A stretch of 64,000 bases of DNA. It comes from an uncultured bacterium (lineage in GTDB: Bacteria > UBP14 > UBA6098 > B30-G16). This document shows positions 6,486-57,685 of this stretch, in pieces; positions within the stretch are counted from its first letter, which is position 1; the number at the start of each line of letters is the position of its first letter. The translations under genes and the position numbers were made by a program. The notes beneath the pieces are model-generated. The model saw only the letters and a list, made by a program, of their open reading frames with translations, did not search any database and was not told where the DNA came from. The DNA lies in assembly GCA_964443405.1 (NCBI GenBank), contig CAYUDB010000001.1, positions 2,752 through 66,751 on the forward strand. Direction: 5' to 3'.

Positions 6486-8291
6486 ATGATGATCCGCAAA
6501 TTACCCGAACTACTTGCAAACCGCATTGCCGCTGGTGAAGTTGTGGAACGCCCTGCTTCAGTAGTGAAAGAGTGCGTAGAAAACTCCATCGACGCCGGCG
6601 CAACATATATCGAAATCATCATTCGCGATGGTGGAAAAACGCTAATGCAAATTGTCGATGATGGAAGCGGCATAGCGCCAGACGATTTGCCGCTCGCCCT
6701 CGAACGCCACGCCACAAGCAAAATTTCCACATTCGATGACCTCGATGCCATAACCACACTCGGTTTTCGAGGTGAAGCACTCGCGTCGATAGCATCAGTT
6801 GCCGAAGTCGAAATTGTCTCACGCCTTCGCGGAGAAAAAACAGCTCATGCCATACGCTGCGATTTCGGAAAAATCACAGATTTCGGACCTACCGCTGCGC
6901 AACAAGGAACTACTGTTACAATAAAAAACCTTTTCGCACTTGTACCCGCACGCAAAAAATTCCTCAAAACCGACAAAGTCGAAACGAACCGCATTATTGC
7001 TCAAGTGCAAAAACTAGCCCTCGCAAAACCCGAAATTTCCTTTCGCCTCGAATGCGACACACGCGAAATAATATATTCACCTGCCACAGGAACTTACATC
7101 GAGCGCATCGAGCAGCTTTTTGGAGCGGAAATAAGCGAAAAACTCATGCCCGCCCACGGTTCAAACGAGCTTTACGCAGTGGAAGCCTATGTTTCACCGC
7201 GAGATTTCTGCACATCATCGTCTTCGGAAGTGTATATGTTTTTGAACTCGCGCCCGATAGCGAGTGCACTTTTGCTGGGTGCCATAAGGCGAGTCTATGC
7301 GCAAATTCTGCCACACGGACGTTACCCGTATGTTTTTATGTTTCTCGAAGCTTCGCCCGATTCCGTTGATGTGAATGTTCATCCTGCAAAAACCGAAGTT
7401 CGTTTTAAGCGTGAGGAAACAGTATTTGGCATTGTTTACAAAGCACTTGCAGCACAACTAGAAACCGATTTTGCACCTGCAGCACAGGTTTTGCCGTCGC
7501 AGCCCATTGTAACCCCAGCTCAGAGCGAAACCCCAGCCAAAATTTCGCGCTCAAACGCCCTCTTCGATGACGTGCCACGCCCATATGCGGGCAAAAAAAT
7601 GAAGGGCTTACCCGAAAAACCTATTGGCACTTTCGACGATGCTTTCTCGCTGACCAAAACCGAGCTTGCCATGCGCGATGCAGCAAACACTATCGAACGT
7701 GAAAGCCTTTTTGCCGAAGGTATGCAGTTTTTGCAGATTCTAGACAGTTATATAATCATCCGTTCGCCGCGCGGTGCAATGATAATAGACCAACATGCCG
7801 CACACGAACGCGTGCTTTTCGAACGCGTTTATGCAGCCATCGACCACGAACCAGCTGTAGTTCAACGGTTGCTTTTCGGCATAGAGCTTTCGCTCTCCCC
7901 ACGGCAACTCGATGCAACATCAGTGCTTAGTGAACACTTTTTGCACACAGGTTTCGAGGTATCACTTTCGGAAAAATCGCGCGGAAAAATCGAAATAACC
8001 GGTGCTCCATCTTTTGTAAAAACATCCGAAATCGAAAGCATAGTGCGCAAAATACTCGACGATTTTTGCAATACCGAGGTGCGCACATCCGATATCCCAC
8101 GCGAATTTGCCGCATCGGTGGCATGCCATTCTGCAATTCGCGCTGGGCAACGCCTGTCCGACGACGACATGCGTTCACTTTTCGAAAGCCTTTTCGCCTG
8201 CGACAATCCCACCACATGCCCACACGGGCGCCCAACTATCGTTGAGTTTTCTGCAATTGATTTCGAAAAAATGTTCGCTCGCCGCCAATAA
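6486..8291 (+). CDS. mutL: DNA mismatch repair protein MutL
   Basis: The N-terminal GHKL ATPase motifs (LANRIAAGEVVERPASVVKECVENSIDAGAT...DDGSGI) are diagnostic of the MutL family. Length 601 aa. Confidence 0.93.
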   Translation: MMIRKLPELLANRIAAGEVVERPASVVKECVENSIDAGATYIEIIIRDGGKTLMQIVDDGSGIAPDDLPLALERHATSKISTFDDLDAITTLGFRGEALASIASVAEVEIVSRLRGEKTAHAIRCDFGKITDFGPTAAQQGTTVTIKNLFALVPARKKFLKTDKVETNRIIAQVQKLALAKPEISFRLECDTREIIYSPATGTYIERIEQLFGAEISEKLMPAHGSNELYAVEAYVSPRDFCTSSSSEVYMFLNSRPIASALLLGAIRRVYAQILPHGRYPYVFMFLEASPDSVDVNVHPAKTEVRFKREETVFGIVYKALAAQLETDFAPAAQVLPSQPIVTPAQSETPAKISRSNALFDDVPRPYAGKKMKGLPEKPIGTFDDAFSLTKTELAMRDAANTIERESLFAEGMQFLQILDSYIIIRSPRGAMIIDQHAAHERVLFERVYAAIDHEPAVVQRLLFGIELSLSPRQLDATSVLSEHFLHTGFEVSLSEKSRGKIEITGAPSFVKTSEIESIVRKILDDFCNTEVRTSDIPREFAASVACHSAIRAGQRLSDDDMRSLFESLFACDNPTTCPHGRPTIVEFSAIDFEKMFARRQ

Positions 8292-8563
8292 ACGCAAAAC
8301 AAGTGCACCGTTACTATCCATTGATACGCTGCTAGGCTCAATCTTTCTGTTTAATCGGTTTTACAATCATTCCCAAGCACAAAATCGCAAATGGGCAAAT
8401 ACTTTTTCTACATAGGCAGCAAGCACCGAATATGTGGGCAGTATTGGCACAGTGCTGGTTGCAAAAATGCGAAGCACCACATGAGAAAAAAGTTGCAAAG
8501 TCGAGTTAAAGTGTTATTATTATTGCCTTTTTTCAATGGATAAAGAACCCAAAAGGAGGAGAT

Positions 8564-9766
8564 ATGGCTTACCCAAAAGCATTGCGCGATTTCCTTACCA
8601 CCGAGCTTGCCGGCATAAAAGAAGCTGGTCTGTGGAAAGATGAGCGCATCATCGTATCGCAACAAGGTGTAGAAATTGAAGTTGCGGGCGGGAAAAAAGT
8701 GCTGAATTTCTGCGCGAACAACTATCTGGGGCTTTCGTCGCATCCCGAAGTCATAAAGGCAGCGCACGCGGGTCTCGATTTTCGCGGATATGGGCTTTCT
8801 TCGGTACGTTTCATCTGCGGCACACAAGACATTCACAAAAAGCTCGAAGCTAAAATCTCCGAGTTTTTGGGCACCGACGACACCATCCTCTATTCGTCTT
8901 GTTTCGATGCCAATGGTGGTCTTTTCGAAACTCTGCTCAAAGAAGAGGACGCCATCATCACCGAAGAGCTTAACCATGCATCCATCATCGACGGCGTACG
9001 CCTTTCGAAGGCAAAACGTTATCGCTTTAAGCATTCGAGCATGGAAGACCTTGAAGAGCAGTGCAAAGTCGCTCGCGCCGAAGGTGCCCGTTTTATGATA
9101 ATCGCCACCGATGGCGTGTTCTCCATGGACGGCGACATTGCCAATTTGCCCGGCATAGTAGAAATCGCCGAACGTTACGATGCGCTTGTTATGGTTGACG
9201 ATAGCCATGCCACAGGTTTCATGGGCAAGCACGGTCGCGGCACGCATGAACACCACAATCTCATCGGCAAAATCGACCTCATCACCACGACACTTGGCAA
9301 AGCTTTGGGCGGAGCTTCTGGTGGCTGCATTTCGGGTCACAAAGAAATCATCGATTTGTTCCGTCAGCGTAGCCGCCCTTATCTTTTCAGCAACACGATA
9401 CCGCCTGTTGTTGCGGCAGCAGCGCTTCGCGTACTCGAAATTCTTTCCACCACCACCGAAAGACGCGATAAGCTCGAATGGAACACCACATATTTCCGCG
9501 AAGGCATGAGCAAAATCGGTCTCGCCATTCGCCCCGGTGTGCATCCGATTGTGCCCATTATGCTTTATGAAGGCAAACTCGCCCAAGACTATGCACGTGA
9601 GCTTCTCAACGAGGGCATTTACGTTATTGGTTTCTACTATCCCGTTGTCGCGAAAGGACAAGCGCGCATACGCGTGCAGATTTCTGCAGCACACGAAAAA
9701 GAACACCTCGACAAAGCCATCGCCGCTTTCGAGAAAGTGGGCAAGAAACTCGGCTGCATCAAATAA
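8564..9766 (+). CDS. kbl: 2-amino-3-ketobutyrate CoA ligase (glycine C-acetyltransferase), PLP-dependent
   Basis: Strong RBS AAAAGGAGGAG. The sequence ([14 protein letters not shown]...[15 protein letters not shown]...[16 protein letters not shown]...[24 protein letters not shown]...[12 protein letters not shown]...[22 protein letters not shown]) matches Kbl rather than BioF nearly motif for motif. Confidence 0.9.
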
Positions 9767-9824
9767 ACACAGCAGCTTCACAACTACACCGCTGTGTCGA
9801 TAACTTACCAGCGGCACATACACA

Positions 9825-9858
9825 AAACCACCAAACTTTCGTTTGGTGGTTTTTTTGG
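9825..9858 (+). terminator. Rho-independent terminator downstream of kbl (stem ACCACCAAAC/GTTTGGTGGT, loop tttcg, then T7)
   Basis: Hairpin followed by a TTTTTTT run seen directly, about 60 nt after the kbl stop. Confidence 0.75.
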
Positions 9859-10079
9859 TGGGTAAAATTTTGCTGGTGCGGTGCTGATACTCTGGAAAAA
9901 CCGTTTGGTTAATGCATACGCCAAAAAACATTATGCACAGAAATGCCGCAATTGCTGCCAGTGTTTCACATCGGGAAAAAACTTATTTTTGCTAACATTA
10001 TGCACACAAGTGCGTTAGAAATACAGGCACAGTTAGTTTTTGTAAAATCACACCGCGTGCAAAATTATTATAGCTGGCA

Positions 10080-12560
10080 TTACTTTATGAATGTAATGTC
10101 TCGCGCAAAGGTAGAACTGCCATGCCAAATAATTGTATATGTGCCCGATGGCAAGTTTTCTGGTTGCCACAAATACGTGCCACCCTTCGATATGCCTGCA
10201 AAAAGAAGCTCCACTTGTTTGCCCATTCTGTCGAAAACCGCAAGTTGCCCATATTCTGGCGTGGCAAGCGATAATGTGATGGCACTTTGGGCATTAAATG
10301 GGTTCGGATAGGCAAAAAGCGCCGATGCACGCGGCAAAGAAGATGCGTCGGCAATGCCTGTGGTGTCGGCAAAGAAAGTGTAACAGAAATCAGGTGTCAG
10401 CACGTTCGCACCGCAGTATTCCGCCTTGTCCTGTAAGTTGCGCACGCACAAGGTGTGATTCGAATGCGAAATCTCATCGGGTGAATAAATACCTATTACT
10501 CCGCCAGTTGTAGGCATAAAGTCGAGCGCATCGAAAGGTATTTCCACACCATCGAAAAGAAATGCGGCGTGCGCATAGCTTAGTGCCGTAAACTCATCCA
10601 CAAGCTCAAATGATATTTCGGGATGTCGCGTGTGTGTTGTGCCACCCGAAACTGGCGAAATCGGTATAACTTGTGGCGGTGTATAATCGACGAGAAAATA
10701 AAAATCGAACGGTGCCGCAGTGTTGCCACGAGTGTCCTTGAGGTTTTCAACAGTTACGTTCACACGTCCTTGCATCCATTCTATCATGGGCGTAAAAATT
10801 ACCGTGTCGCCGTGGATAACAAGCGTTGAACCTGTGTGCACATAATCGTTTATGATCACACGAAGCGAATCCCACATTACGCCATCGGCATCGACGCAGA
10901 CAATCTTTATGCTCTGCCCAATACACGATGACGAACTGCCCATAGCTGGTTCTACGTAATCGATAATTGGTGCACCCACTCCGGGCACATAGTTAAACGA
11001 CCAACATTCCGATGGCATACAGTTTGGAGCGCACATTGTGGCGAGGTCGCAGATGTTTTGAACGCACACAACATGCACACCCGGTGAAAGCGCCGAAACA
11101 GACGAAAAAATCGTGTAACCTCCAGCTATCGCCGATGACGAAAAAGTGCGCGAAGCTCCATCTAGTGTCATTTGAACGCCTGTTAAGTTTATACCTGCAC
11201 CGGCATTGGTTATGTTCGCACGGATTTCAGTTATAGCAGTAGTGAGTGTTTCGCCTTCGCTGGGCGAGACTATGGTCATTGTTGGCGCCTGCAAATCCAC
11301 ACGGAAATTCGACGTGAAGGGTGTTGGCAAAATGTTGCCGGCAATGTCGCTAACTCTAAGCGATAGGTTTACATTTGCACCATTTGCCCAAGTGAACGAC
11401 GGTGTAAAAATTAATGTGTCGCCCGAATGCGAAATCTCCGGCGATGATGATGTGTATGTTCCCGAACCATAAGGAATTGTAAGCGTCGTCGAAGTCCAAT
11501 CAACACCAGAGCCGTCGGTGATGCGCAATTTTATGCGGGCATTGTTGCAGCTAACAAACGATGAGGGTGTTGGTGAAACCAATGACACAACAGGCGGATC
11601 AATATCGAAACCCGAACCGGTAGTGTCGGCAAGTGAGCTGCTCGAAAGTATCAGAAATTGATTCATGGTAACCGCAAAAATATACGGATATTGCACGCTA
11701 CAATCTGCAGTCATGGAGGTTGTGCGATATTCATCCACAGGCGCAGGCGTTGCAGTAGTTGTCCAGTCGAGAAGCTGGAAGCCATAGTTGCCGTTTGCAA
11801 CGATGTATTGTGTTCCGTTCGAGCAACCGTGCCGACAATTGCCATCAGTTGATGAAAAACGACCGGCTATTGTCGAAAAACTGTCGAAGCTCACAGCGAG
11901 AACATTGCCCGTGCCAACACCAAGTTCTGCACCATCGGCAACGTAAACCCTTCGTGAATCGACAGATACATCAACACTATACCCGGGAGTGGCTGTGCCG
12001 CCCACAATAAGCGGCAAAGATGGATCTGATATATCGTAGATAAAAATGCCACCTGTAAGACCAATAGCACATATATTACCTTGCACAGCAACGGTTTGTG
12101 CAGCATAAGGTGACGAATACACTTCTGTTAGCGTAGAAGGTGGCGTGAAGCGCAGAATTTTAAAAAAGTTCGTGACGGCAGCATAAACATACCCATCGTC
12201 ATAGGCAATGCCTCGCACCAAATCGGATGTCCCAAAATTGTAAAGAGCGGTGGAAAACAAATGACGCGGGTTCGACATGTCGGCAACAACAATTTGACTT
12301 GTTGCGGTAATAAACGCATAACCATCGCCGATAGCCATGTGCATCACATAACCCGAACACACAAGCGAATCGATTTTTTCGGGCGCTGCAGGGTTGGAAA
12401 CATCTACAATAAACACTGTGCTTCTGTCGAGCACATACACCAAATCCTCATACGGCAGGCAAAACTGCGCGTTCGTAAAACCGCCAAGCGAACCAGTGAG
12501 TGTCATGGCATTAGCCATGCTGAAACACAAAATAAGCACAAGTAGCAAAATTTTTTTCAT
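10080..12560 (-). CDS. T9SS C-terminal-domain (Por_Secre_tail) cargo protein with N-terminal LVIVD-repeat beta-propeller and several Ig-like domains
   Basis: ATG at 12560 with AAGGAGA RBS and signal peptide MKKILLLVLILCFSMANA. LVIVD-type repeats (LVYVLDRSTVFIVDVSNPAAP..., IVVADMSNPRHL). Ig-like modules (PPVVSLVSPTPSSFVSC..., APTMTIVSPSEGETL...). The C-terminus (YPNPFNAQSAITLSL...GTYLWQPENLPSGTYTIIWHGSS...ITFIK) matches the T9SS type-A CTD signature. Confidence 0.8.
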   Translation of the reverse strand: MKKILLLVLILCFSMANAMTLTGSLGGFTNAQFCLPYEDLVYVLDRSTVFIVDVSNPAAPEKIDSLVCSGYVMHMAIGDGYAFITATSQIVVADMSNPRHLFSTALYNFGTSDLVRGIAYDDGYVYAAVTNFFKILRFTPPSTLTEVYSSPYAAQTVAVQGNICAIGLTGGIFIYDISDPSLPLIVGGTATPGYSVDVSVDSRRVYVADGAELGVGTGNVLAVSFDSFSTIAGRFSSTDGNCRHGCSNGTQYIVANGNYGFQLLDWTTTATPAPVDEYRTTSMTADCSVQYPYIFAVTMNQFLILSSSSLADTTGSGFDIDPPVVSLVSPTPSSFVSCNNARIKLRITDGSGVDWTSTTLTIPYGSGTYTSSSPEISHSGDTLIFTPSFTWANGANVNLSLRVSDIAGNILPTPFTSNFRVDLQAPTMTIVSPSEGETLTTAITEIRANITNAGAGINLTGVQMTLDGASRTFSSSAIAGGYTIFSSVSALSPGVHVVCVQNICDLATMCAPNCMPSECWSFNYVPGVGAPIIDYVEPAMGSSSSCIGQSIKIVCVDADGVMWDSLRVIINDYVHTGSTLVIHGDTVIFTPMIEWMQGRVNVTVENLKDTRGNTAAPFDFYFLVDYTPPQVIPISPVSGGTTHTRHPEISFELVDEFTALSYAHAAFLFDGVEIPFDALDFMPTTGGVIGIYSPDEISHSNHTLCVRNLQDKAEYCGANVLTPDFCYTFFADTTGIADASSLPRASALFAYPNPFNAQSAITLSLATPEYGQLAVFDRMGKQVELLFAGISKGGTYLWQPENLPSGTYTIIWHGSSTFARDITFIK

Positions 12561-12889
12561 TGAATCTCCTTTTTTGCATATCAGAATTTACCTATATCAA
12601 ACCATCTGTCAAGCCTCATGCGGCGCGCGGGAGCGTGCGTTTCAGAGACTGCACCACCTTAGTCTTCAACAATTGGCGAAAAATCACAAACCAGAGCTTA
12701 CCGGATCTCTATTTCATCGCTAATCTCGCCAAGAGCAGGAGGCGTAGCCACTTCTAGAGGTGACCACTTGGCACACACCTTTTTGGCACTTCGTGCCGTT
12801 TCTGTCGTTGGAAGAAAATAAAAACCGGCTACGAGTTGAATTTTTGCAAGAGGCGTAGCCTCTGACAAAAGTGCCCACTGTCACCGGCA

Positions 12890-13312
12890 CTAGACATTCC
12901 AGAGGAAGAGGTGCGTATCGTCATCGAAGGTGCGGGAAATTGTGTCCCAGTGCCAAGGGATGACGGTTATTTCGCCTGTGATGGAGATTTCACCCGAGAA
13001 AAGATGCCCACCAAACGTCTCAAAACTGCTACTACCCAAAATCGCATGCGCATGAACTACAAAAGTGCCATCCTTAGCGGTAATGTTGCCAGAAAGCGAA
13101 AGAATTTCGAAATCGCCCTCGAAGGATTTGCGCATATACTTTTTTGTGCTCAGTTCAAAACACCCAAGCTCAGCTTTTCCCATAGCACCGATGCCCGAAA
13201 TCGAGCCGCCGATGTGCTCTTTTTCGGCAAAATCGGTGAGACTCGCAATTAGATCTTCACCTTTGTAAAGGCGAACAACATAAATGCCGGTGTCGGTTTT
13301 TTTGAATTTCAT
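12890..13312 (-). CDS. PPC (DUF296, plants-and-prokaryotes-conserved) domain protein
   Basis: 140 aa. RBS AGGGAGGGAAC before the ATG at 13312. The overall sequence (MKFKKTDTGIYVVRLYKGEDLIASLTDFAEKEHIGGSISGIGAMG...VVHAHAILG) is typical of the PCC/DUF296 fold. Confidence 0.6.
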   Translation of the reverse strand: MKFKKTDTGIYVVRLYKGEDLIASLTDFAEKEHIGGSISGIGAMGKAELGCFELSTKKYMRKSFEGDFEILSLSGNITAKDGTFVVHAHAILGSSSFETFGGHLFSGEISITGEITVIPWHWDTISRTFDDDTHLFLWNV

Positions 13313-13374
13313 GTTCCCTCCCTAGTTAAAAAAAAGGGGACGCCTATTGCGCCCCCAATAACGTTTACATGCGT

Positions 13375-15117
13375 TTAACGTGCTGCAGTTTCAGTAGAAT
13401 CCTCTTCGCCCATTGTGGGTGAAAAACTAGAGCACAAAAACTCGAATGTTTTGCGCAATGCCGTAGTAACGCGTCCGTTAGAATTGTCCATGTAATAGAG
13501 TGGGAAGGCGAAAATTGCGCCACGAGTGTCGGGTTTGGCAAAACGTATGTGAACTTGGCGACCGGTAATGTCGGAAGTGTCGGATTCGCCGATGCCACCG
13601 TAAAGCGACATAGCATATGGCACTCCCATAAAGTGACCGTATGTGCCCAAACCTTTGATGCCCGGCAAAAGTCCGTCGGTGAGTTTGGTGGCATCAACTG
13701 TAATGTCGCTCATGCCAAAACGCGAGGCATCGGCAATTTTTGCGCCGCGGATACGTTGTTGGTCGCTCGATTGCCACGTTACACCAAACATGTCAAATGG
13801 AATCTGTCCAACAGGATTGGTGGTGGATGAATCGACAAAGCCTGGTATGTTCTCAAAAAAGCCGCGACCGTCGAAAATCACGCGACCGCCAGCAATGACG
13901 TAGTCACGTAACATGTCGAGTGCTTTTTGACTGAGAGCATTACGCGGCAAAACCGGCGATGTGGGGCACAAAAACACATACACAATGCTGTAATTGCGCA
14001 AATCTATTGGTGTTACGTTTAAATCGACACCGGTGAACGAAGCACGATACGAAGTATCGACATCGTAAGATGAGAACAAGCCACTACCACCGCGCAATTG
14101 GTCGAAAATGCCGTTGTAGAACGTTTTCATTGCGGGGTTCCAAGCACTGGGACCGGGAGCCAAATAAAACGCCTTCATGCGATGGTTGAAAGTGCCCGCC
14201 AGCATAGCGCTTTTGTTGGCATCGATGCTTGGGTCGAAGTAGGGCTGCACCGCATAGAAAGTTACGGTATCCTGCACACCTTCGTAACGGGCATCGTCGC
14301 GCACCTTCACTATGAAGCGACAAAGTCCTGTGGGTATGTCGCCACGAATGGTCGTCGAATTGTTGCGAATCCAACCGTCATCGGGAAACTCGCCTTGGTA
14401 CGCGAAAAATACCGAGTCGTCCGCACGCGAATCGCGAACAACTCTGCCCGAATCGACATTTTCTATCCACCAATAATACTCAAGGATAATGGATTTGTCG
14501 GGGTCGTGCGCATCCCAAGTTTTGCGGTAACCGTACCAATCCCAAGTTGTGTTTTCGAGAACCCAAAGTGTATCGACATAAGCCTCGAGTTCGGCTGTGG
14601 AATCTTCTTTGTCGGCACGGATGATAAGGGAATCTGGAGGACGGTTTGTGCGATAAATTATGCGGCATTTCGCATCGGATACGAGTGAATCGTTATCGAA
14701 AGCGCGCACACAGAACAAGTGCTTCGTAACGCTGTCGCCCGCTTCGAGTGAAAGGTAGATGGTATCGGCGCTGCTGGTTGTGTTTTTCCATTTGAAAACA
14801 CGTTTCGCAACACCTGTGCCAAAGATTATGGAATCGGGAATTTCGAGTGTGCCTACATAAAAACTATCGAAGCGTGCAGCAGCAACAAAATTGGCTGGCA
14901 CATCGATGTATTGGTATTTGCCGATGATGCCGTCTTTATCGGAAGCCCACCAGTAAATGACCGGTGCATTGCTCAATGTGTCGCCATCAGCGGGATTATC
15001 GTAAACATTCACGTGAGGGGGCGTGTTTTCGATGTAGTCGCCCTTGATATCGCCGCAGCCTGTGAACATTTGCGCTGCAACGAAAATCAGTGTGAGTATC
15101 GTAAGTTTTAATTTCAT
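13375..15117 (-). CDS. Lipoprotein of unknown function (580 aa)
   Basis: Internal ATG at 15117 preceded by AGGAGTGCGAAG. N-terminus MKLKLTILTLIFVAAQMFTGCGD carries a lipobox. It is the fourth gene of the five-gene minus-strand operon with the T9SS components. No recognisable catalytic motif. Confidence 0.6.
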   Translation of the reverse strand: MKLKLTILTLIFVAAQMFTGCGDIKGDYIENTPPHVNVYDNPADGDTLSNAPVIYWWASDKDGIIGKYQYIDVPANFVAAARFDSFYVGTLEIPDSIIFGTGVAKRVFKWKNTTSSADTIYLSLEAGDSVTKHLFCVRAFDNDSLVSDAKCRIIYRTNRPPDSLIIRADKEDSTAELEAYVDTLWVLENTTWDWYGYRKTWDAHDPDKSIILEYYWWIENVDSGRVVRDSRADDSVFFAYQGEFPDDGWIRNNSTTIRGDIPTGLCRFIVKVRDDARYEGVQDTVTFYAVQPYFDPSIDANKSAMLAGTFNHRMKAFYLAPGPSAWNPAMKTFYNGIFDQLRGGSGLFSSYDVDTSYRASFTGVDLNVTPIDLRNYSIVYVFLCPTSPVLPRNALSQKALDMLRDYVIAGGRVIFDGRGFFENIPGFVDSSTTNPVGQIPFDMFGVTWQSSDQQRIRGAKIADASRFGMSDITVDATKLTDGLLPGIKGLGTYGHFMGVPYAMSLYGGIGESDTSDITGRQVHIRFAKPDTRGAIFAFPLYYMDNSNGRVTTALRKTFEFLCSSFSPTMGEEDSTETAAR

Positions 15118-15142
15118 CTTCGCACTCCTAATTGGGTTGCAG

Positions 15143-16054
15143 TTAAAATTGTGCCCCAAGCGTAAAGCGATGAACATGCTCGAGTTTTTCCATATATGTA
15201 AACGAATAATCGGCACGAACAAACATTCCCGCAACGGGATATTTTACGCCCGCACCAAGCGTGAATTTTTCGGCATCGTAGTTGAGTTTTATGCCGCCAC
15301 GCACGAAAGCCATTTCTTTGAAAGCGTATTCGGTGCCGAACTGAAACTTCTCGAGGTTATCGCTCGGGTGAGAACCTTCAGCATCGAGTGTGAGCCTGTG
15401 TGTTGAGTTTTTGATAAGCTCGCCTGCAGCGCCAAAATGAAATGCCATAGGCAACGGTGCCGATTCTTGAATAAATTCGATGTCGGGACCAAAATTTGAG
15501 AGCTTCATGCCGAGACGCACATCTTTGAAAGCGGTTTTATACATTGTGCCAATGTCCATAGCCCAACCGTGCGCGTGAATGTCGGCGAGATATTCGCCGA
15601 GGTATTTTGCATTTATACCCACAGCAAAACGGTCGGTGAGACGAGTGGAATAGGAAAGACCAATGGACAAATCGCCAGCTGTGAAAGTTCTGCCTGTGCC
15701 TTCGGGATACAGCGGCGTAGTTTCATCCATTTCGCCCGCGTTTAACCCTACGAAGAAAACACCCATAACTCCACCAGCCATAGGCATCGAAACTGCGCCA
15801 AATTCATGGCTCATATCGGCATACAAAACCGAATGCGTAAAGCATGCCTGACGAGAAAGTTGCCATGCCATGCCCGCAGGGTTGTAAATTATCGCCGAAA
15901 TATCGTCGGAAACACTGATAAACGATCCACTCATGCCTTCGGCGCGTGCGCTTACCGGCATTTCGAGAAATTGCGCCACGCTTTGCCCTACTTTTGCCTG
16001 TGCCAAAAGTAAAGCCGGAAGCGCTAGTGCGAGTATAGTCAATATTCTTTTCAT
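15143..16054 (-). CDS. PorV/PorQ-family T9SS-associated outer-membrane beta-barrel protein
   Basis: RBS AAGGAG; signal peptide MKRILTILALALPALLLAQA. The N-terminal motif GQSVAQFLEMPVSARAEGMSGSFISVSDDISAIIYNPAGMA matches the PorV/PorQ (UPF0164-like) signature G-sAaeFL-I-vsARA-gMGGAf-DDa-A-ywNPAGL. The C-terminal aromatic residue (…TLGAQF) is typical of OMP barrels. At 303 aa it is PorQ-sized. Confidence 0.6.
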   Translation of the reverse strand: MKRILTILALALPALLLAQAKVGQSVAQFLEMPVSARAEGMSGSFISVSDDISAIIYNPAGMAWQLSRQACFTHSVLYADMSHEFGAVSMPMAGGVMGVFFVGLNAGEMDETTPLYPEGTGRTFTAGDLSIGLSYSTRLTDRFAVGINAKYLGEYLADIHAHGWAMDIGTMYKTAFKDVRLGMKLSNFGPDIEFIQESAPLPMAFHFGAAGELIKNSTHRLTLDAEGSHPSDNLEKFQFGTEYAFKEMAFVRGGIKLNYDAEKFTLGAGVKYPVAGMFVRADYSFTYMEKLEHVHRFTLGAQF

Positions 16055-16072
16055 CTATTTCTCCTTTGCGCC

Positions 16073-18352
16073 TTATTTGATTATGACGAACTTGCCGGTT
16101 TGAATTTCGCCGTCTGCATCTTCCACGCTCAAAACATATATGCCCGAAGTTACAGCCTGATCGTTGCGTGTGATGAGGTTCCAGTCTTCGGCGCCGACCA
16201 TTTCGCTGCCAGCAGATGCAGATGCGGTTTCATCGTGATCTAGCGTCTGCACCAAGTCGCCATCGAGGGTGTAGATGCGAATCTTGCATTTGGTGGGTAT
16301 GTTGTAGAAACGCAATTTGCGTGAATACTCGCTCCATTCGCCGGTATAGGATTTTTCCCAATGCTCGGAATAATCGTGGTCAACGCGGTAAGGGTTTGGC
16401 ACAACACGAACGATATTGTCCTTCGACGACTTGCCCGCAGGCACAACCCATTTTGCAAAGTTCACTTTGTTCGATTCGATTGGGTCGAGCATTTTGGAAG
16501 GTTGACCATAATCGAAAGATGTGATGACTATGAATTTGTCGTCGCCGGGCAAGAGATTTTCGATTTCGTAGTAGTAGTAGGTTTCGCCTGCGATGGTTGT
16601 TTCGGGTGGCATGCCGTTGTTTGACGAGATGCGCGTTGGGCGACGCTGCACCCAATCGACTGTATCCACACCATCCACAACAGGAACACGATAAAGCGAA
16701 TCGGAATAGACTACTGTGTCGGATGGCATATCGGCATAGGTGTGCATGCCCAAAGTGTCGGTAGTGCGGCGCACATAGTCGATTGTGTAGTAATCGACTT
16801 TGTCGAACTGAGCAATAGGCACAAAGTAGTTTTCGATTTTAGCTTCGGAGACATAAATACGATATCCCTCAAAATCGTAAAGACCCGTTATGTTGTCGAA
16901 AAAGTTTTCGACTAAGGTATCGGGTTTCCAGAGAATAGTAACTTTGTTCTCGCCGGTTACAATTGAAAAATTGGGTGTAGGTGGCGGCTGTGGACCTTTG
17001 TAATCGTTATCGTAGATTTGTTTAACCCAATATGCAGCGTAAGTTAGCTCGGTGAAGTTGAACTCGGAAGCACTCCATGCGGGGTTTGTGTTTGGGTTTG
17101 CATTGCGCGGGTTGACGTGAAAATTATTGCCCACAATGAAGCCAATTGTGAATTCGACCGAATCGTGCGGGGCTATGTTCATAGGACCAAACGATAACAA
17201 ATAACGAGTATCGTAACCGTTGGCGATGTCTTTCATTGTAGCATTGTCGGTGAGCGGTGCACCTTGCCAGTTTGCGGAGGTGGCGGAGTCGGTGGTGGCT
17301 GTTTGGTCGAAGTCGAATTCGCCATTTGAGAGCACTTTGTATTTGTTGATGTCGCCCGAAGGTGTGCCATCGAAACCGGGGTTGGACCCAGTGCGTGCAG
17401 GACCCCAGTCGTAAGATTCGGTGCTGTTGGAGATCCACCAGTTGTAAGAATAGCGATCGACGTCTTCTGGCACTTGCAAAACACGTGCTGCCATTGCGCC
17501 AACAGGGCTTTGTGCTGTGTAAACCTGATCGGTAGGATCGCCATCATTATCTGCAATCCATGCGAGGTTCACTTCGACTGTTTCACCTGTGGCGGAGTTG
17601 AAGTATTTTTGAATAAAGCCCGTTATATCGTCTTGGGCATAGTCACTAACATCAACATGACCTACGTCACCGTCGATGTATAGACCAATATACATGTCGC
17701 TGATGGTTCTATCGTCGTCGCGGATATTTTTGAACTTGTAGTTGATGAAGACGAAGTTGGCGGAATAATTGTAGCTCCAAGCATAGCTCTTTTGCTCCAC
17801 TTGCACGCCAATTGGTTTGTGGTCGGGTGGCGAAAAACCCGAAACAGTGATGTCGCTAAATTTGCCCAGATAATCCTCTTCGGAAATGGCAGTAGAATCG
17901 CCATTGAGGATTGAACGGTAAACCAACGTATCATCTGCGGCGTCTGTTGGGAAAAGTTCGTTTGCGTCGCGTTCCCAACCATCTTCGCCTACCGAAACCA
18001 AAGTATCACCGTTGATGACCGCGCCAATCCAGAGTGCGCCCATAAATAGGTATTCCAAACCAGAGCACCCCGGATATTCACCCGAAGGCGCACATACACC
18101 CGAATTTCCGCACACTTCCTGTGCGTCGAGAATGCAGTCGGGATCGCTGTTACCACGTTGCGAGCCAAAGAAACCGTAGTTTGAAACGGTCATGTAGAGG
18201 TCGCCGGCATGGTGTGTTTTCTCATCGGTAGAAGGACCAAGCGAAACATTGGTTCTCAAAAAACGATGCTGAGAATTGCCGCTGTTGGTCTTATCGGTTG
18301 CCCATGCGCACACGAGCAAAACCGTCAGTAGTGATATGATTATCTTTTTCAT
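16073..18352 (-). CDS. Secreted T9SS cargo-type protein (759 aa) with a variant C-terminal sorting domain
   Basis: Signal peptide MKKIIISLLTVLLVCAWA. The C-terminal ~80 aa (VVPNPYRVDHDY...CKIRIYTLDGDLVQTL...SGIYVLSVEDADGEIQTGKFVIIK) has the T9SS CTD pattern. The middle has fibronectin-III-like segments. It sits immediately upstream of the PorV-like gene. Confidence 0.6.
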   Translation of the reverse strand: MKKIIISLLTVLLVCAWATDKTNSGNSQHRFLRTNVSLGPSTDEKTHHAGDLYMTVSNYGFFGSQRGNSDPDCILDAQEVCGNSGVCAPSGEYPGCSGLEYLFMGALWIGAVINGDTLVSVGEDGWERDANELFPTDAADDTLVYRSILNGDSTAISEEDYLGKFSDITVSGFSPPDHKPIGVQVEQKSYAWSYNYSANFVFINYKFKNIRDDDRTISDMYIGLYIDGDVGHVDVSDYAQDDITGFIQKYFNSATGETVEVNLAWIADNDGDPTDQVYTAQSPVGAMAARVLQVPEDVDRYSYNWWISNSTESYDWGPARTGSNPGFDGTPSGDINKYKVLSNGEFDFDQTATTDSATSANWQGAPLTDNATMKDIANGYDTRYLLSFGPMNIAPHDSVEFTIGFIVGNNFHVNPRNANPNTNPAWSASEFNFTELTYAAYWVKQIYDNDYKGPQPPPTPNFSIVTGENKVTILWKPDTLVENFFDNITGLYDFEGYRIYVSEAKIENYFVPIAQFDKVDYYTIDYVRRTTDTLGMHTYADMPSDTVVYSDSLYRVPVVDGVDTVDWVQRRPTRISSNNGMPPETTIAGETYYYYEIENLLPGDDKFIVITSFDYGQPSKMLDPIESNKVNFAKWVVPAGKSSKDNIVRVVPNPYRVDHDYSEHWEKSYTGEWSEYSRKLRFYNIPTKCKIRIYTLDGDLVQTLDHDETASASAGSEMVGAEDWNLITRNDQAVTSGIYVLSVEDADGEIQTGKFVIIK

Positions 18353-18377
18353 CTATTCCATCCTTTGGGATATGAAT

Positions 18378-21300
18378 TTACCATGCCATCTCTATGCCAA
18401 GACGAATGTCGGTAGGTGTGCTCCAGTTCGCCGGATTTTTATCGTAATCGGTGCCGATGAGAGTATAGGTGCCGTCGGCATTGTAAACAATCCAGCTTTT
18501 ATCGGGTTCGCCTGTGTCGGAAGAAACTGCCAACACACTGCGCGAGTTTGTTACGTTGCCCACGAGTAAGTAGGCGCTGTAGTTGAATTTGCCAATGCGA
18601 AAATCTTTGTTCAGCTTCACATCGAGGTTGAACTGCGAGGGCATGCGAAGGATATTTGTTCTTTCCCATGCTTTTTCGCCAGGGCGAATTTCGTAATGTG
18701 GATTGTACTTTGAAGGTGTGTACGGATAACCACTACCCCAACTAAGCACACCGTTTATACCCCATCTGTCGGGCATTTTCAAACCGAACACTTCGGGATG
18801 CTCATCTTTTGAGGCACGCAAATCTACAACCAAGTTCACAAGATGGCGCTGATCCCAGTTGAGCGGCAAGTCGCGCAGAGGAATTGCAGATTGATCGAAG
18901 AGTGCATCGTAGCCGCTGCGTTCGGAAGAGCTTTTGCCATTGGCGAAAGCGAAGGTGTAGTTGAAGTTTACAGACCAATAATGCGAAAGTGCTTTGTCGA
19001 TGTTGAACTCCACACCGCGAGTGCGCGCATAATCGGAGTTTACATATACGGATTGTTCGAGAGGACCAATTCTCTGTTGAGATGTATTGAGCAAATCGTA
19101 GATGTCTTTGTAGTAGCCCGAAAACTGAACCGACCAGTTATCGGCAAAAGCATATGCAACACCAAGTTCGTATGCAACTGTCTTCTCAAACGAAAGGTTC
19201 GGGTTGCCCATAAGACGCCCTGCGCTTGAGCCTTGAGTAGGTGTTTGGTAGAAGTTGTCGAAACCCGGCAGCTGATAGAAGTGACCATAGCTGAAGAAAA
19301 GCTTAGATTTGTCGGTAATTGGATAGCTCATGCCCAAACGTGGCGAAACTTTTACTTTGGTGCGCGAAACTTTGTCGGTTTCCCACCAAGGCTCAAGGAA
19401 GACCGCGAGATCTTCTTGAATGGAATCGTTCATGACCTCATTTGCCTGAATAAGCGCGTCGAGACGCAAACCTATATTGGCAATAAGCCCGCCGTATTCC
19501 ATTTTGTCTTGAACATATGCCGCAAAAGTCATAGGTGTGCGCGTGTAGAAACTGCGGAAAATACCGTTGTCGGAATATGGCATGCCATCGTAAATGCCGT
19601 TGTATTTGGCTTCGGGATATTGAATTTCGTTCATGTTCATGCGAATCCATTGATACTCGATACCAGTTTTGACCAAATTGTTTTTGTCGAGCTGGTTGGA
19701 ATAATCGCCCTTCACCAAAATCATATCGACTGTTCTTTCATGCCACACAGCGTATCTGTCGTAACCGCGATACTGGAAACCCGAGTATTCGTCGTAGTTG
19801 GTGTTGCCGTTACGGTCGATGTATGGTTCCCAATCGTCGCGCAAATAGTTGGGACCATCATATTTGCCATTGCCATTGAGGTCTAAGAACGGCTCGCCAT
19901 ATTCGCTTACATCGTATCTGCCGTTGCCGTTTTCATCGTAATAGTTGCAATAGCCATCACGTGGGGTGTATTGACCATCGCCGTTGAGATCTTCGTATTC
20001 GCCCCAGTCAGCTGTGCCGTTATCGTTGGCGTCGTACCATGTGTATTCTTCGACAATGTTATTGCCGGGTGTATCGTAGTAGCTACCATAAACGTATTCG
20101 CCAACATCCTTTCTTCCATCCTCGTTGATATCAACCCATAAGGTTTCCATCACAAAAGGATATGGACCGGTGCCGTTTATGAGAGCCTGATAGCTCATTC
20201 CATAAGGATAACCGTCAAGGAACGGTTCACCATCCATAAACATTTCGCCAATATTGAAGCCGAAGAAACTGGAATATGGCGAGTTGAAATTTGTCGTGCG
20301 AGGCTCAAATATACCGTTGGCGTTCCAGTCGAACCAAGGTTCTTCGCCAATCTGCGGGCGTAATGTGTCGCTGAAAAGTGTGTCGGTGCGAATGATTGAG
20401 TCGCGCAATGCAGGGTTATTCCAAATTGTGTCCACACGCGAGATGTTCGGTTCCCAATATTCGCCGAAATCCCACATGCCATTGCCGTTTATGTCTATCC
20501 ATTGGACACGCACATTGGCAATACCATCGTTGTTCACGTCCACCCAATCGTCGAGTGTGCGCCAAGCGGAACTGTCGGTGGCGAAATCGCCAGGGGTAAG
20601 CCCACCTGGGCTATACGTTCTATCGTTGCGGAAATATCCGAAGCGAAGCTCGTAGAACGATTTTTGCGTAACATTGTGCGTAATGTTCAACGCTGCCTGA
20701 TATGAACTTTGCGTGCTCAAATACGCAAACTCTGGGCAGTAGTAATAGTACCAGTTGAAAGTGCGCCAACGCGACCAGTTGCCGTTGAACGACAACACAT
20801 AACGGAAGGAAGGCGTGATGTATTGCTTGAGTTTTATGGTAGCTTGGTATTGGTTCACTCGTTTTTCGGGGAAGAAACCGTACCAATCGTAGTCGATGTT
20901 GTAGGGTGAAACGAGATCGTCGGTTGTGGCTATAGGTGCGCCACCGTTCTCGTAATCGAGATCGAAGACTTTATTGTAAGGCGTTGTGCCATCAGAATTT
21001 TCGCCGGTGATTGAGAAGAAATATGAGATTCTTTTGTCGCGTGGCATTTTGAAGCCGAACACAGGCAAAAGATATGTGGACACAGGTTCGGGACCTGAAA
21101 GTGAGAATTCGAGTTTGTCGGCATTTGTGGTAAACTTGTTCAAAGCATCGATGCGGAAATTTGTGGTGCTGTAACCCAAAGAGCCAGAAACTTTATTCGG
21201 GTCGCCTTCTTTTGTGATGATCGAGACGATAGCTGAAAGTGCACCGCCATATTCAGCATTGAAGGTACCGGTTTGCACCTGAACTTCTTGCACAGAGCTT

Positions 21301-21911
21301 TTCGACACATCCATTGCCTGACCACCATAAGTGGGGTCGTTAACTGTCATGCCGTCAACGCTATATTGGACTTCTGAGCCTCTGCCACCACGGAAGTGGA
21401 GTTCACTACCCTGACGCTTGACACCAGATTTTGTGGCAATGACTTCTGAGACCGAGTTGAAAGCACCTTTTTGGATGTCTTCGGCAGAAGTTGTTGAACT
21501 TGAGCCGGTTACATCGCGCTTGACGAGGTCGGTTTTCTGAGCGCTCACAACCATTTCCTCGCCTTTCATAGCTTCCGACTTCAATTTGACGTTTGCAGTA
21601 GAAGTTCTGTCGGCGCTTACGGAAATACGTTGAACCGTCATTGTGGCATAGCCCACCGAAGAGACGATTATATCGTAGAAGCCGGGACGAACATCAAGAA
21701 ACAGATAGTTACCATCGAGGTCGGTGGTGGAATAGTTGATGGTATCTTTGGTGCCCGGATTGATGAGCATAACATCGGCAGCAGCAACTGCATCTCCATC
21801 GTCGTCAATAACTTCGCCGACGATTTTTCCGGTTGTTCCTGCGAATAGAGCACCTAAGAACGACATTATGGCAAGCATGAAAGCTGCCAAAAACATGCCA
21901 GTCCTTCGCAT
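18378..21911 (-). CDS. Giant TonB-dependent-receptor-like outer-membrane protein (1177 aa): N-terminal carboxypeptidase-regulatory-like domain, plug, beta-barrel, and inserted Asp/Asn-rich calcium-binding (thrombospondin-type-3/EF-hand-like) repeats
   Basis: N-terminus after the signal peptide, TGKIVGEVIDDDGDAVAAADVMLINPGT...DLDGNYLF...GFYDIIVSSVGYAT, is a CarbopepD_reg-like fold. The plug-like segment is VVSAQK...RQGSELHFRGGRGSEVQYSVDGMTVND. The terminal aromatic (…RLGIEMAW) fits an OMP barrel. The middle region carries DANDNGTADWGEYEDLNGDGQYT, DENGNGRYDVSEYGEPFLDLNGNGKYDG and YIDRNGNTNYDEY. Confidence 0.65.
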   Translation of the reverse strand: MRRTGMFLAAFMLAIMSFLGALFAGTTGKIVGEVIDDDGDAVAAADVMLINPGTKDTINYSTTDLDGNYLFLDVRPGFYDIIVSSVGYATMTVQRISVSADRTSTANVKLKSEAMKGEEMVVSAQKTDLVKRDVTGSSSTTSAEDIQKGAFNSVSEVIATKSGVKRQGSELHFRGGRGSEVQYSVDGMTVNDPTYGGQAMDVSKSSVQEVQVQTGTFNAEYGGALSAIVSIITKEGDPNKVSGSLGYSTTNFRIDALNKFTTNADKLEFSLSGPEPVSTYLLPVFGFKMPRDKRISYFFSITGENSDGTTPYNKVFDLDYENGGAPIATTDDLVSPYNIDYDWYGFFPEKRVNQYQATIKLKQYITPSFRYVLSFNGNWSRWRTFNWYYYYCPEFAYLSTQSSYQAALNITHNVTQKSFYELRFGYFRNDRTYSPGGLTPGDFATDSSAWRTLDDWVDVNNDGIANVRVQWIDINGNGMWDFGEYWEPNISRVDTIWNNPALRDSIIRTDTLFSDTLRPQIGEEPWFDWNANGIFEPRTTNFNSPYSSFFGFNIGEMFMDGEPFLDGYPYGMSYQALINGTGPYPFVMETLWVDINEDGRKDVGEYVYGSYYDTPGNNIVEEYTWYDANDNGTADWGEYEDLNGDGQYTPRDGYCNYYDENGNGRYDVSEYGEPFLDLNGNGKYDGPNYLRDDWEPYIDRNGNTNYDEYSGFQYRGYDRYAVWHERTVDMILVKGDYSNQLDKNNLVKTGIEYQWIRMNMNEIQYPEAKYNGIYDGMPYSDNGIFRSFYTRTPMTFAAYVQDKMEYGGLIANIGLRLDALIQANEVMNDSIQEDLAVFLEPWWETDKVSRTKVKVSPRLGMSYPITDKSKLFFSYGHFYQLPGFDNFYQTPTQGSSAGRLMGNPNLSFEKTVAYELGVAYAFADNWSVQFSGYYKDIYDLLNTSQQRIGPLEQSVYVNSDYARTRGVEFNIDKALSHYWSVNFNYTFAFANGKSSSERSGYDALFDQSAIPLRDLPLNWDQRHLVNLVVDLRASKDEHPEVFGLKMPDRWGINGVLSWGSGYPYTPSKYNPHYEIRPGEKAWERTNILRMPSQFNLDVKLNKDFRIGKFNYSAYLLVGNVTNSRSVLAVSSDTGEPDKSWIVYNADGTYTLIGTDYDKNPANWSTPTDIRLGIEMAW

Positions 21912-22506
21912 TGTAATACCCCCCTACGCATTTGTTAATCAATATGTAATTACGAAATCAAGCCCCTTATGTCAACGCTATTTGACAATTATTTAATTTC
22001 CAGCAAACAAGCTCTAAAAAATATTTTATCAAAAAAAAATTTCAATACCTTTTTCGCACCTGTCGATTTTTTATTCTGAAAATTGTGAGCTGCCCAAATT
22101 TCTATTCCAACACGATGATAGCATCGCGACTTTCATTGCAGCTGTGCCAAAACCAGCCATTACCACGGCGCAAAACAGTAAAACATTCTATTTTTCAATA
22201 ACTTAGTTTTGCAGCATTTTGATCTTCACTTCAACGGAGCGTCCGGTGACAAAAACCTGCCGCCCTTTTTTTGCTCTTCGTGCCGTTTCTCCCCCGTGTG
22301 AAGAAAATGAAACTGATTACGATGGGCTTATGCAGCGGCATACGAAGCGTGCGTTTCAGTAATTTGCCATCTTATCATTCGAAACTTTCCACAAATCTCA
22401 ATAAGAGCAGACAGCGTAAAGGTGCCAGTTGGCACTGGTGGAGACAAAAACTTTGATTTTTGGGAAAAATGCTGTAATTTATTTTATGATCTTTGCAAGG
22501 TGGAAA

Positions 22507-23607
22507 ATGGCTTTTTACGACGAAAATGTTTATGCAGCAATGGGTTTATGCTTGGTACGCGGAATTGGCGCAAATATGTTTGCGCAATTGTGCAAGACCT
22601 TTGGCAGCGCAAAGGATGTGATAAATGCCGATTTTGAAACATTAGCTCAGTCTTTGGGCAATGATATGGCACAAAAGATTGCGAATTGCCGACAAAACGA
22701 TGCCATCGACAAAAAACTAGAGAGCTGCGAAAAATTGGGCATTGATGTTTTGGTTTATGGCACACGCGAATATCCCGCACGTTTGCTCGATATTTATTCG
22801 CCACCACCGCTTCTGTTCATGCGCGGCACAATCGAAACACAAGATGACCGTGCTGTTGCAATTGTAGGCACAAGACGACCAACTCATTACGGCATACGTG
22901 CTTGCGAAAGCATTTGCGCCGAACTCGCTGCCTCAGGGGTAACTATAGTTTCGGGGCTTGCTTCGGGCATAGATGGTGAAGCACACAGAACAGCACTTTC
23001 GGCAGGTGGCAGAACCATTGCTATTTTAGGCTCCGCTATCGACAACATTTACCCAGCCGACCACAAAACATTAGCCGCACAAATTATCGAACACGGCGCT
23101 CTTATTTCAGAATATCCACCTGGTACAGCGACACATCCATCAAATTTTCCGCATAGGAACAGAATAATAAGCGCGCTCTCACTGGGAGTACTTGTTGTGG
23201 AAGCAGGGTTAAAAAGCGGCGCACTCATTACCACGCAGCACGCAGCCGAACAAGGACGTGAGGTTTTCGCAGTGCCGGGCACACTTTTTGCCGAAAGCAG
23301 CGCCGGCACAAACAAACTCATCAAAGATGGCGCCAAATGCGTTACCACAGCGCAGGACATACTCGATGCACTTTCAATGCCAACGCTCACTATCCCGCAG
23401 GTGAACGAAGCCGCCACAAAAGTGAAAACCCTCACCGGTGTTGCCAAAACTCTTTTCGATACGCTCACTAACGAACCCATGCACATCGATGCACTGGTCC
23501 GCGAGGCGCACGTAGATTTGCCCGCAGCACTCACTGCGCTTCTTGTGCTCGAATTCGAAGGCATAGTGCGCCAACTCCCAGGTAAGCTTTTCGTGCGAAA
23601 TATCTAA
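22507..23607 (+). CDS. dprA: DNA-processing protein DprA (Smf)
   Basis: ATG at 22507 with AAGGTGGAAA RBS. The Rossmann-like DprA core (VAIVGTRRPTHYGIRACESICAELAASGVTIVSGLASGIDGEAHRTALSAGGRTIAILGSAID...FPHRNRIISALSLGVLVVEAGLKSGALITTQHAAEQGREVFAVPG) is diagnostic of the family. Confidence 0.9.
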   Translation: MAFYDENVYAAMGLCLVRGIGANMFAQLCKTFGSAKDVINADFETLAQSLGNDMAQKIANCRQNDAIDKKLESCEKLGIDVLVYGTREYPARLLDIYSPPPLLFMRGTIETQDDRAVAIVGTRRPTHYGIRACESICAELAASGVTIVSGLASGIDGEAHRTALSAGGRTIAILGSAIDNIYPADHKTLAAQIIEHGALISEYPPGTATHPSNFPHRNRIISALSLGVLVVEAGLKSGALITTQHAAEQGREVFAVPGTLFAESSAGTNKLIKDGAKCVTTAQDILDALSMPTLTIPQVNEAATKVKTLTGVAKTLFDTLTNEPMHIDALVREAHVDLPAALTALLVLEFEGIVRQLPGKLFVRNI

Positions 23608-27747: not shown

Positions 27748-27786
27748 CTTCCACAACAAAAACCACCAAACTCTCGCTTGGTGGTT
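27748..27786 (-). terminator. Rho-independent terminator for the SPFH gene (stem AACCACCAAGCG/…GTTTGGTGGTT followed by TTTTTGTTG on the minus strand). It also lies downstream of the convergent coaBC gene.
   Basis: Hairpin and T-run seen directly in the convergent intergenic region 27542-27831. Confidence 0.6.
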
Positions 27787-27831
27787 CTTCGTAAAATTTT
27801 GGCAGACGACAAACATCGCCGCAAATGCTTG

Positions 27832-35842: not shown

Positions 35843-35871
35843 AAAAAAACCACCAAACTTTTGTTTGGTGG
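35843..35871 (-). terminator. Rho-independent terminator of pmbA/tldE (stem CCACCAAAC/GTTTGGTGG, T7 on the minus strand)
   Basis: Hairpin and A7 on the plus strand (T7 on the minus strand), about 90 nt downstream of the 35959 stop. Confidence 0.65.
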
Positions 35872-35958
35872 CATCAGTGAATATTTTTGCAAACGGCTTA
35901 GTCGTCCACTTTGAACAAAAACTTTTTGTAAACCAGTGGGTGCCGTCTCTGAAATAAA

Positions 35959-40246: not shown

Positions 40247-40375
40247 CATATAATATATGCCATTGTTACAAATGGAAACCGCCATAAAAACACTATGCCG
40301 CGAGTTTTGAGATAATAAAACCATACAACGCTCGATCGAGAGCTTCAAAAACGCAACTGGCGCAAGGAGAAGGAG

Positions 40376-57560: not shown

Positions 57561-57685
57561 TGGAAAAGTTTCGTATAAAAATAGTTATTTTTTGAATTGC
57601 AGTTGTTGTATTTTTCATTTAGTATAGCGTGACGCGAATGCAGTGGCGATTTGTGTTTTGCCTGTGAAAATTATTGCGTGCGGAG

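Follow-up and report, generated by a model that had tools for sequence, protein, structure and literature searches.

Two intergenic regions at the ends of a conserved outer-membrane operon share blocks that may be decayed copies of one non-coding repeat module

The window analysed in this study, by which we mean the whole 64-kb stretch of DNA, carries a five-gene operon with an intergenic region of interest at each end, region A at the operon 3' end and region B at its 5' end (Table 1). The 303-aa protein of this operon belongs to the PorV/PorQ family (NF033709, 189 bits versus a cutoff of 90), and its proteins of about 760 aa and about 570-620 aa have no family match. The 826-aa protein encoded beyond region A matches the T9SS sorting domain TIGR04183 only below threshold (20.7 versus 23 bits) and is a probable T9SS cargo, while the clear T9SS cargo genes in the window are two, encoding an M14 peptidase (23911-26253) and an M4 peptidase (40376-43276). 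The first-pass annotation placed both regions upstream of T9SS-related genes, and this is roughly correct, given the PorV/PorQ family protein of the operon and the sub-threshold sorting domain of the 826-aa protein. The sigma-70-type promoter predicted for the 826-aa gene lies outside the shared blocks described below, just past the end of block 2, whose A copy abuts the -35 hexamer, and the CTTGACA(G/C) type of this -35 element is also found in relatives. For the operon promoter, the -10 element (TAATTA) was assigned by reading the sequence. The DNA that bears the blocks has a coding-like G+C content of 44-54%, compared with 26-35% in the flanking promoter DNA; for the B unit the values are 41-51% versus 26-35% in promoter-proximal DNA.

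Table 1. Positions of the genes, intergenic regions, shared blocks and predicted signals in the window.
Feature	Position	Strand	Details
mutL	6486-8291		
826-aa gene	10080-12560	minus	LVIVD and Ig-like domains
Region A	12561-12889		between stop of 140-aa PCC-domain gene and start of 826-aa gene (both minus)
Predicted promoter of 826-aa gene, sigma-70-type	12585-12612	minus	TTGACA-16-TAAATT, 10/12
Block 2, A copy	12614-12674		14-mer AGCGTGCGTTTCAG at 12632-12645
Block 3' in A	12722-12774		AATCTC…AAGAGCAG…GCGTAGCC…GGTGACCACTTGGCAC
Block 1, A copy	12780-12848		exact 15-mer 12789-12803; hairpin GGCAC-TTC-GTGCC 12785-12797; GAAGAAAAT 12811-12819
Putative intrinsic terminator of five-gene operon	12812-12889	minus	65-nt hairpin 12888->12824, -26.5 kcal/mol
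Block 3'' in A	12846-12889		second copy of internal direct repeat; 5' arm and top of putative terminator hairpin
140-aa PCC-domain gene	12890-13312	minus	stop codon 12892->12890
Five-gene operon	12890-21911	minus	TonB-receptor-like, 759 aa, PorV/PorQ family, 619 aa, PCC
1177-aa TonB-dependent-receptor-like gene	18378-21911	minus	CarboxypepD_reg domain
Region B	21912-22506		between diverging starts of 1177-aa gene and dprA
Predicted promoter of TonB-receptor-like/PorV-Q operon	21947-21975	minus	TTGACA 21975->21970, TAATTA 21952->21947
Block 3* in B	22228-22266		weak, partial block-3-like stretch before block 1
12-nt direct repeat, copy 1	22245-22256		GGTGACAAAAAC; inside block 3*
Block 1, B copy	22267-22334		exact 15-mer 22276-22290
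Block 2, B copy	22326-22387		exact 14-mer 22346-22359; contiguous with block 1
Block 3 in B	22394-22435		ends with palindrome GTGCCAGTTGGCAC 22422-22435 (hairpin -7.9 kcal/mol)
12-nt direct repeat, copy 2	22440-22451		GGAGACAAAAAC; just after block 3 in B; 11/12
dprA	22507-23607	plus	ATG at 22507

Regions A and B are homologous. That the two intergenic regions share blocks, as had been proposed from a first reading of the sequence, is confirmed by three blocks of about 70 nt (block 1), 60 nt (block 2) and 45 nt (block 3, with a second copy in A), all on the same strand in A and B and all beyond shuffled controls. The 15-mer CTTCGTGCCGTTTCT of block 1 is exact, as described before, and occurs in the 64-kb window only at its two listed positions. 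The 13-mer GCGTGCGTTTCAG is likewise exact and confined in the window to 12633-12645 and 22347-22359, but it is actually part of a 14-mer that begins one base earlier. When A was shuffled 1000 times, the longest exact match to B never reached 14 nt, and the second-longest reached 11 nt in two of the shuffles. For block 1, local alignment of 12780-12823 with 22267-22312 gives 46 columns at 80% identity and a score of 46 (500 dinucleotide shuffles: 21.3 +/- 2.5, maximum 32); with softer scoring the alignment extends to about 71 columns at 73% identity and a score of 62 (shuffles 16 +/- 3.4, maximum 36). Block 2 under the softer scoring covers about 65 columns at 69% identity and scores 41 (shuffles 16 +/- 3.3, maximum 32). 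The third match claimed earlier is found at 12731 and 22403 rather than at 12727 and 22401, and AAGAGCAG-N3-GCGTA alone, 13/16, is at chance level by our own estimate. However, it belongs to the significant block 3, which joins the AAGAGCAG match and the TGGCAC palindrome across an indel of about 11 nt (12722-12774 in A versus 22394-22435 in B) and scores 26 versus third-rank shuffles of 16.6 +/- 1.2 with a maximum of 23. The TGGCAC-containing palindromes, listed before as a feature of their own, are present and fall in this same block, GGTGACCACTTGGCAC starting at 12759. Block 3' scores 36 against block 3 of B and 38 against block 3'', and neither score is reached in any of 500 shuffles; block 3* against block 3'' scores 21, which 14 of 500 shuffles equal or beat.

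When region A is compared with the whole window, its best two non-self matches both fall inside B, and in a self-comparison of the window the block-1 pair ranks fifth among the non-self matches. Could such a similarity arise by chance? About four exact 15-mer pairs would be expected in a 64-kb window by our own estimate, and many 16-mer matches appear in the self-comparison. However, the two regions share three separate same-strand blocks, each of which scores above all or nearly all of its shuffles, and we give coincidence almost no credence. Region A is also identical in two independent Logan assemblies (L007 and L010) and therefore is not an assembly artefact; the two Logan contigs that cover it are identical to the window and so offer no informative variation. 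The source organism is rare: one NCBI contig of 70,712 nt and two short Logan contigs represent it, and it is present in runs SRR10083293 and SRR10083294. Within blocks of 69-73% identity, the exact 15-mer and 14-mer are the cores that have been kept best, and their run lengths fit a uniform identity at this level (P = 0.10 and 0.057). The two tests combined give about P = 0.03 (our own Fisher combination), which is mildly unusual and may hint at some constraint on the cores. Our best reading is that they are the best-preserved stretches of repeats that are about 70% identical, not protein-binding motifs.

The anatomy of the blocks differs between the two copies. The hairpin of block 1 is intact in A but disrupted in B, where it reads TGCTC-TTC-GTGCC, and the spacing of the palindrome differs in every copy (4 nt, 4 nt with a 1-nt stem bulge, and 10 nt). 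The hairpins that had been described in region A do exist. The 11-nt internal repeat GAGGCGTAGCC of region A is also present, at 12739 and 12850, with its first copy thus placed a little differently than before, and it forms the core of a 34-nt direct repeat (12735-12768 and 12846-12879, 76% identical, spacing 111). On the plus strand, the order of blocks in B is 3*-1-2-3 (22228-22451, about 1.2 units), of which 1-2-3 follow one another without a gap (22267-22435), and the order in A is 2-3'-1-3'' (12614-12889, about 1.6 units, block 2 being deleted from the second unit). The different order of blocks noted in the first-pass annotation is therefore explained, because the two orders are related by a cyclic shift. 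Aligned with a tandem array of the 175-nt B period (22236-22410), A is collinear with a score of 91, beginning midway through one unit and reaching into the start of the unit after next; a single 175-nt unit gives 53, and shuffles give 21 +/- 4 with a maximum of 40, in a test with cheap gap extension whose unit was itself derived from these data. On either side of the B unit stands one copy of a 12-nt direct repeat with 11 of 12 bases identical, a level matched by 1 of 3000 flank shuffles. This repeat fits a target-site duplication and equally the overlap that arises where a periodic sequence exceeds one period in length. No equivalent flanking repeat was found around A, leftward extension of the B array (22040-22235) is at chance level, and there are no terminal inverted repeats at the ends of the 183-nt B insert (22257-22439; score 14 versus shuffles 12.4 +/- 2.4).

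Comparison with relatives reveals that the blocks are specific to this lineage. Orthologues of the 1177-aa protein that are 58-69% identical led to six loci (L021, L022, L023, L024, L028 and L029), all of which keep the operon; the PCC gene stands at the operon end in L028 and L029, and dprA-mutL adjoin the operon in L021. The window and L021 to L024 have in common an invariant TTGACA, some 60 nt ahead of the start codon, and an invariant GCG.AGGGGG ribosome-binding region, and CTTGACAG is also visible upstream of the operon in L028 and L029. The blocks are absent from all six loci, whose spacers are unrelated to ours apart from the promoter and the ribosome-binding region. Nor, in these relatives, does the spacer at the 5' end of the operon resemble the one at its 3' end. 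The upstream spacer measures 174-216 nt in the six relatives versus 595 nt in the window; such short, block-free spacers place the B unit, some 290 nt upstream of the operon promoter that relatives conserve, within about 400 nt of lineage-specific extra DNA. For the 826-aa protein, the closest orthologues are 42% identical and their upstream DNA is unrelated. In L021, mutL and dprA are adjacent and co-directional (6911-9826), whereas in the window they are 14 kb apart, with the operon, region A and the 826-aa gene between them, which points to a local rearrangement in this lineage.

Another finding concerns the end of the operon. Directly after the UAG stop codon of the PCC gene begins a hairpin that is followed by UUUUUAUUUUCUU (12823->12811), so that a stable stem-loop and then a U-run stand downstream of a stop codon at 12812-12889. 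By its anatomy this stretch is an intrinsic terminator, and it would function as such for the operon. Block 3'' supplies its 5' arm, and the first part of block 1 supplies the 3' arm and the U-run, both of which are thus carried by the A copy of that block. The block 1 copy in B is without this stem: the equivalent stretch folds at only -3.7 kcal/mol, and two remnants of the arms lie about 95 nt apart. With this stem missing from B, termination cannot account for the repeat in its entirety. The putative terminator in A is nevertheless the only function that the sequence itself appears to support.

Shared regulator-binding sites for T9SS cargo operons had been offered as one explanation of the blocks. 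In this case the cores would be sites of one transcription factor that co-regulates the 826-aa gene and the PorV/Q operon, or dprA. The core GAAACG(G)CACG, common to the 14-mer and the 15-mer, occurs four times in 64 kb (0.57 expected), every time within A or B and in the same sense as the genes downstream; however, it was defined after the fact, and an alignment of block 1 with block 2 is at chance level. The block-2 core of A has its centre about 60 nt ahead of the predicted transcription start, a usual position for an activator, but the block-1 core of the same region lies about 220 nt upstream; in B, measured from the promoter that relatives also keep, the block-2 and block-1 cores are about 410 and 340 nt upstream. 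The distances from block to promoter therefore differ several-fold between A and B, and no promoter follows block 2 in B. Region B does have a perfect palindrome, GTGCCA-GT-TGGCAC, whose centre falls about 60 nt ahead of the likely start of dprA transcription, but the palindrome spacing is not conserved among the copies. The combined run-length test of the cores is mildly unusual, but each exact core is no longer than expected at 69-73% identity. Furthermore, neither of the two clear T9SS cargo genes has a copy of the motif, the motif is absent from the six orthologous operon promoters in relatives, and the homology extends over 45-70 nt per block, well beyond what a binding site needs. These inconsistencies argue against shared regulator sites, and we consider such a co-regulation unlikely.

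Several narrower readings of the same motifs were tried and rejected. A sigma-54 promoter (TGGCAC-N5-TTGCW, with GG and GC ten bases apart) has its only match in A at 12769-12784, which lacks the -12 GC, and none in the intergenic part of B; two sigma-54 activators are encoded in the 64-kb window. An ECF-type -35/-10 reading of GAAAC, made by eye, shows no conserved -10 element, and TGGCAC as an intergenic motif fails because its pentamer is equally dense in coding and intergenic DNA. Separately from the repeat question, the palindrome at 22422-22435 could be a candidate operator of dprA, of which TTGATT at 22454 is the likely -35 element. Elsewhere in the window, TGGCACAAAAGCTGCT (51784->51769, minus strand) matches a sigma-54 promoter with one mismatch; it lies in the spacer upstream of an [FeFe]-hydrogenase / NuoE-F-like operon (51713 down to about 45532), as a candidate promoter divergent from the sigma-54 response-regulator gene at 51994-53349. 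Upstream of the T9SS M4-peptidase gene, a 24-nt direct repeat (40145-40168 and 40225-40248) reads GGTGCAAAGCGGTGCTCG(G/A)AG(C/T)CA, with a TGGTGCAAGATGCAC palindrome between the copies, and this pair seems a more convincing candidate for regulator sites than the blocks of A and B.

Another explanation put forward was a small RNA family, in which the minus strand of both A and B would code for a small RNA, the two being paralogous, or for a cis-acting leader RNA. The G+C content of the blocks, higher than in the flanks as given above, and several hairpins are consistent with such a product, as are promoter-like sites on the minus strand at 12868->12840 and 22401->22374 and one stem position, read from the sequence, that is doubly changed between A (GGCTACG/CGTAGCC) and B (TTTACG/CGTAAT). 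However, a search of Rfam gave no match in the window at gathering thresholds, and A and B gave only matches far below threshold, with E values of 1 or more in a search to E of 10. The fold z-scores of the full elements are -0.38 and -0.43. The block order differs between the copies, which leaves no common architecture; the block-1 hairpin of A does not survive in B, B has no terminator, the two regions share no unit of promoter plus terminator, and the blocks are absent from relatives. We therefore regard an RNA family as improbable. The blocks might also encode a short conserved peptide, since small open reading frames span block 1 in both regions, minus-strand frames of 56 aa and 36 aa with RNGTK, which read without gaps as FLFSSNDRNGTKCQKG and FIFFTRGRNGTKSKKR, and FVPFL on the plus strand. 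However, the best DNA alignment needs a 2-nt indel within block 1, which shifts the frame, no Shine-Dalgarno sequence can be read before either start, and the frame in A crosses the terminator hairpin. In Pfam there is no credible match at E up to 1 (E of 0.17 and 0.53, far under the curated cutoffs), and a peptide would leave blocks 2 and 3 unexplained. A coding role is thus very hard to credit.

To the extent of our searches, the blocks are confined to A and B. They occur in 2 of about 28 intergenic regions of the window, and nhmmer searches with a profile of each block turned up no further copy, either elsewhere in the window or among 29 fetched loci. Block-1 patterns searched in GTDB species genomes, JGI metagenomes and IMG/VR, none of which includes the source genome, gave unrelated matches only, as did the block-2 pattern in IMG/VR; these matches fell in a fliP coding sequence (FLLFVPFL in our own reading), a Ruminococcus repeat by tRNA genes, and phage genes. 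Comparison of A and B with plasmids by blastn gave nothing. The Ruminococcus repeat, found in a metagenome-assembled genome (L004 985-1037 and L005 18-69), is shared by these two contigs, lies beside tRNA genes and has the form …GTCCAC(C/A)GGACTGTTTTTGCACTTCGTGCCGTTTCTACCC…; it agrees with 21 of 22 bases of block 1 and has the same C-GAA-G mini-hairpin, but the scan pattern itself selected for the match, and the likeness is probably a coincidence. We also observed that one public contig (L023 1-20) begins with GATGTGTATAAGAGACAG, which we take to be the Nextera mosaic-end adapter, so that this contig end would be adapter contamination.

The window holds other repeats. A hairpin, AAACCACCAAAC-TTTCG-TTTGGTGGTT, partly with a T-run after it, occurs in the intergenic DNA at 9824-9856, 27759-27790 and 35846-35875 and looks like a reused bidirectional terminator or a REP-like unit. 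Its copy at 9824 probably terminates the 826-aa gene, and if so, the open reading frame at 8408-9931 starts later than listed. A 75-nt direct repeat (57677-57751 and 57887-57961, 79% identical, E = 2e-10) is the best non-self match in the window; it is located within a gene-poor stretch of 717 nt (57374-58090) that adjoins a sigma-54 activator gene (58091-59461, minus strand). Each of its copies has TTTGCAA(T/C)TTCGCGCACGACA, followed by CTTGACAG in the first and CTTAACAA in the second.

Short intergenic repeats have been described in several bacteria and provide a basis for comparison. BOX elements of Streptococcus pneumoniae are modular, consisting of boxA, boxB and boxC in a fixed order A-B-C, and number about a hundred copies. 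Like BOX, the blocks described here are modular, intergenic, hairpin-forming and lineage-specific, with sub-blocks in variable combination and number; unlike BOX, their order is cyclically shifted. The blocks resemble MITEs in their size range of 100-400 nt, their intergenic location, their absence from relatives and the short direct repeat that flanks the B copy and could be a target-site duplication, but they differ in that they have no terminal inverted repeats, the A copy is rearranged, and the 12-nt repeat is equally explained by periodic overlap. In common with Rho-independent terminators that have shared stems, the A repeat supplies a strong hairpin and a U-run after the last gene of the operon; unlike them, its hairpin is long (65 nt) and irregular, and the B copy has no stem. 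The REP elements of enterobacteria and pseudomonads are 20-40 bp long, usually exceed 100 copies per genome, are linked to a RAYT transposase and alternate in orientation within BIMEs, which are, as here, short non-coding extragenic mosaics of small motifs that include imperfect palindromes (PMC2817692, PMC3733652, PMC3337134). BIMEs and REPs are also often found, as A is, immediately downstream of the stop codon that closes an operon, and roles in termination or mRNA stability have been proposed for them. Blocks 3 and 1 contain GTGCC…GGCAC and GGCAC…GTGCC hairpins, but the blocks are 45-70 nt long and mostly not palindromic. Further unlike REP and BIME, the unit here is about 175 nt, two loci are known, one of the copies separates divergent genes, the window shows no transposase, and all blocks of A and B are in direct rather than alternating orientation. 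By analogy, mosaic or modular intergenic repeats such as BIMEs/REPs and BOX appear closest in kind to A and B, although the orientation of the blocks does not match theirs and no transposase was seen in the window.

Taken together, our preferred explanation, with a probability of roughly one half, is that A and B are decayed, phase-shifted copies of one lineage-specific non-coding module of about 175 nt with three sub-blocks. This favours the option of remnants of a small repeated element that had been raised before, since A is collinear with the 175-nt array and the blocks are absent from relatives. A duplication or copy-insertion of intergenic DNA in this lineage would have given rise to both copies, which now stand in direct orientation at the two ends of the conserved operon. 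The A copy appears to have been put to use, with blocks 3'' and 1 forming the hairpin and U-run that would end the operon, while the B copy seems to have lost the stem and to be decaying; it is probably neutral. The other short repeat families in the window, including one terminator hairpin in three intergenic regions, provide a supporting context for the repeat module, as does the local rearrangement indicated by the separation of mutL and dprA. Counting against it are its presence at two loci only, the lack of terminal inverted repeats and the lack of a match to transposase families among 40 window proteins scanned against Pfam. The module may have spread as a mobile element or by template-switch insertion, or it may be the scar of a local rearrangement. 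A more active role, in which the module is a cis element that brackets the operon as direct repeats 9.4 kb apart, serving as a recombination substrate for excision or amplification or representing a new non-autonomous mobile element that spreads in an uncultured FCB-type lineage, with hairpin ends and no inverted repeats, seems to us rather far-fetched.

What is the implication of a decayed repeat module for the study of secretion in this lineage? The finding is fairly ordinary, and its main value is cautionary: exact 14- to 15-mers beside secretion genes resemble a regulon motif, but those described here should not serve as the basis of a regulatory motif for T9SS. Further results are the delineation of a conserved outer-membrane operon of five genes in an uncultured lineage, of its sigma-70-type promoter and of a putative terminator derived from the repeat. 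If the repeat proves abundant genome-wide, it would be a new short interspersed repeat family from outside the well-studied phyla.
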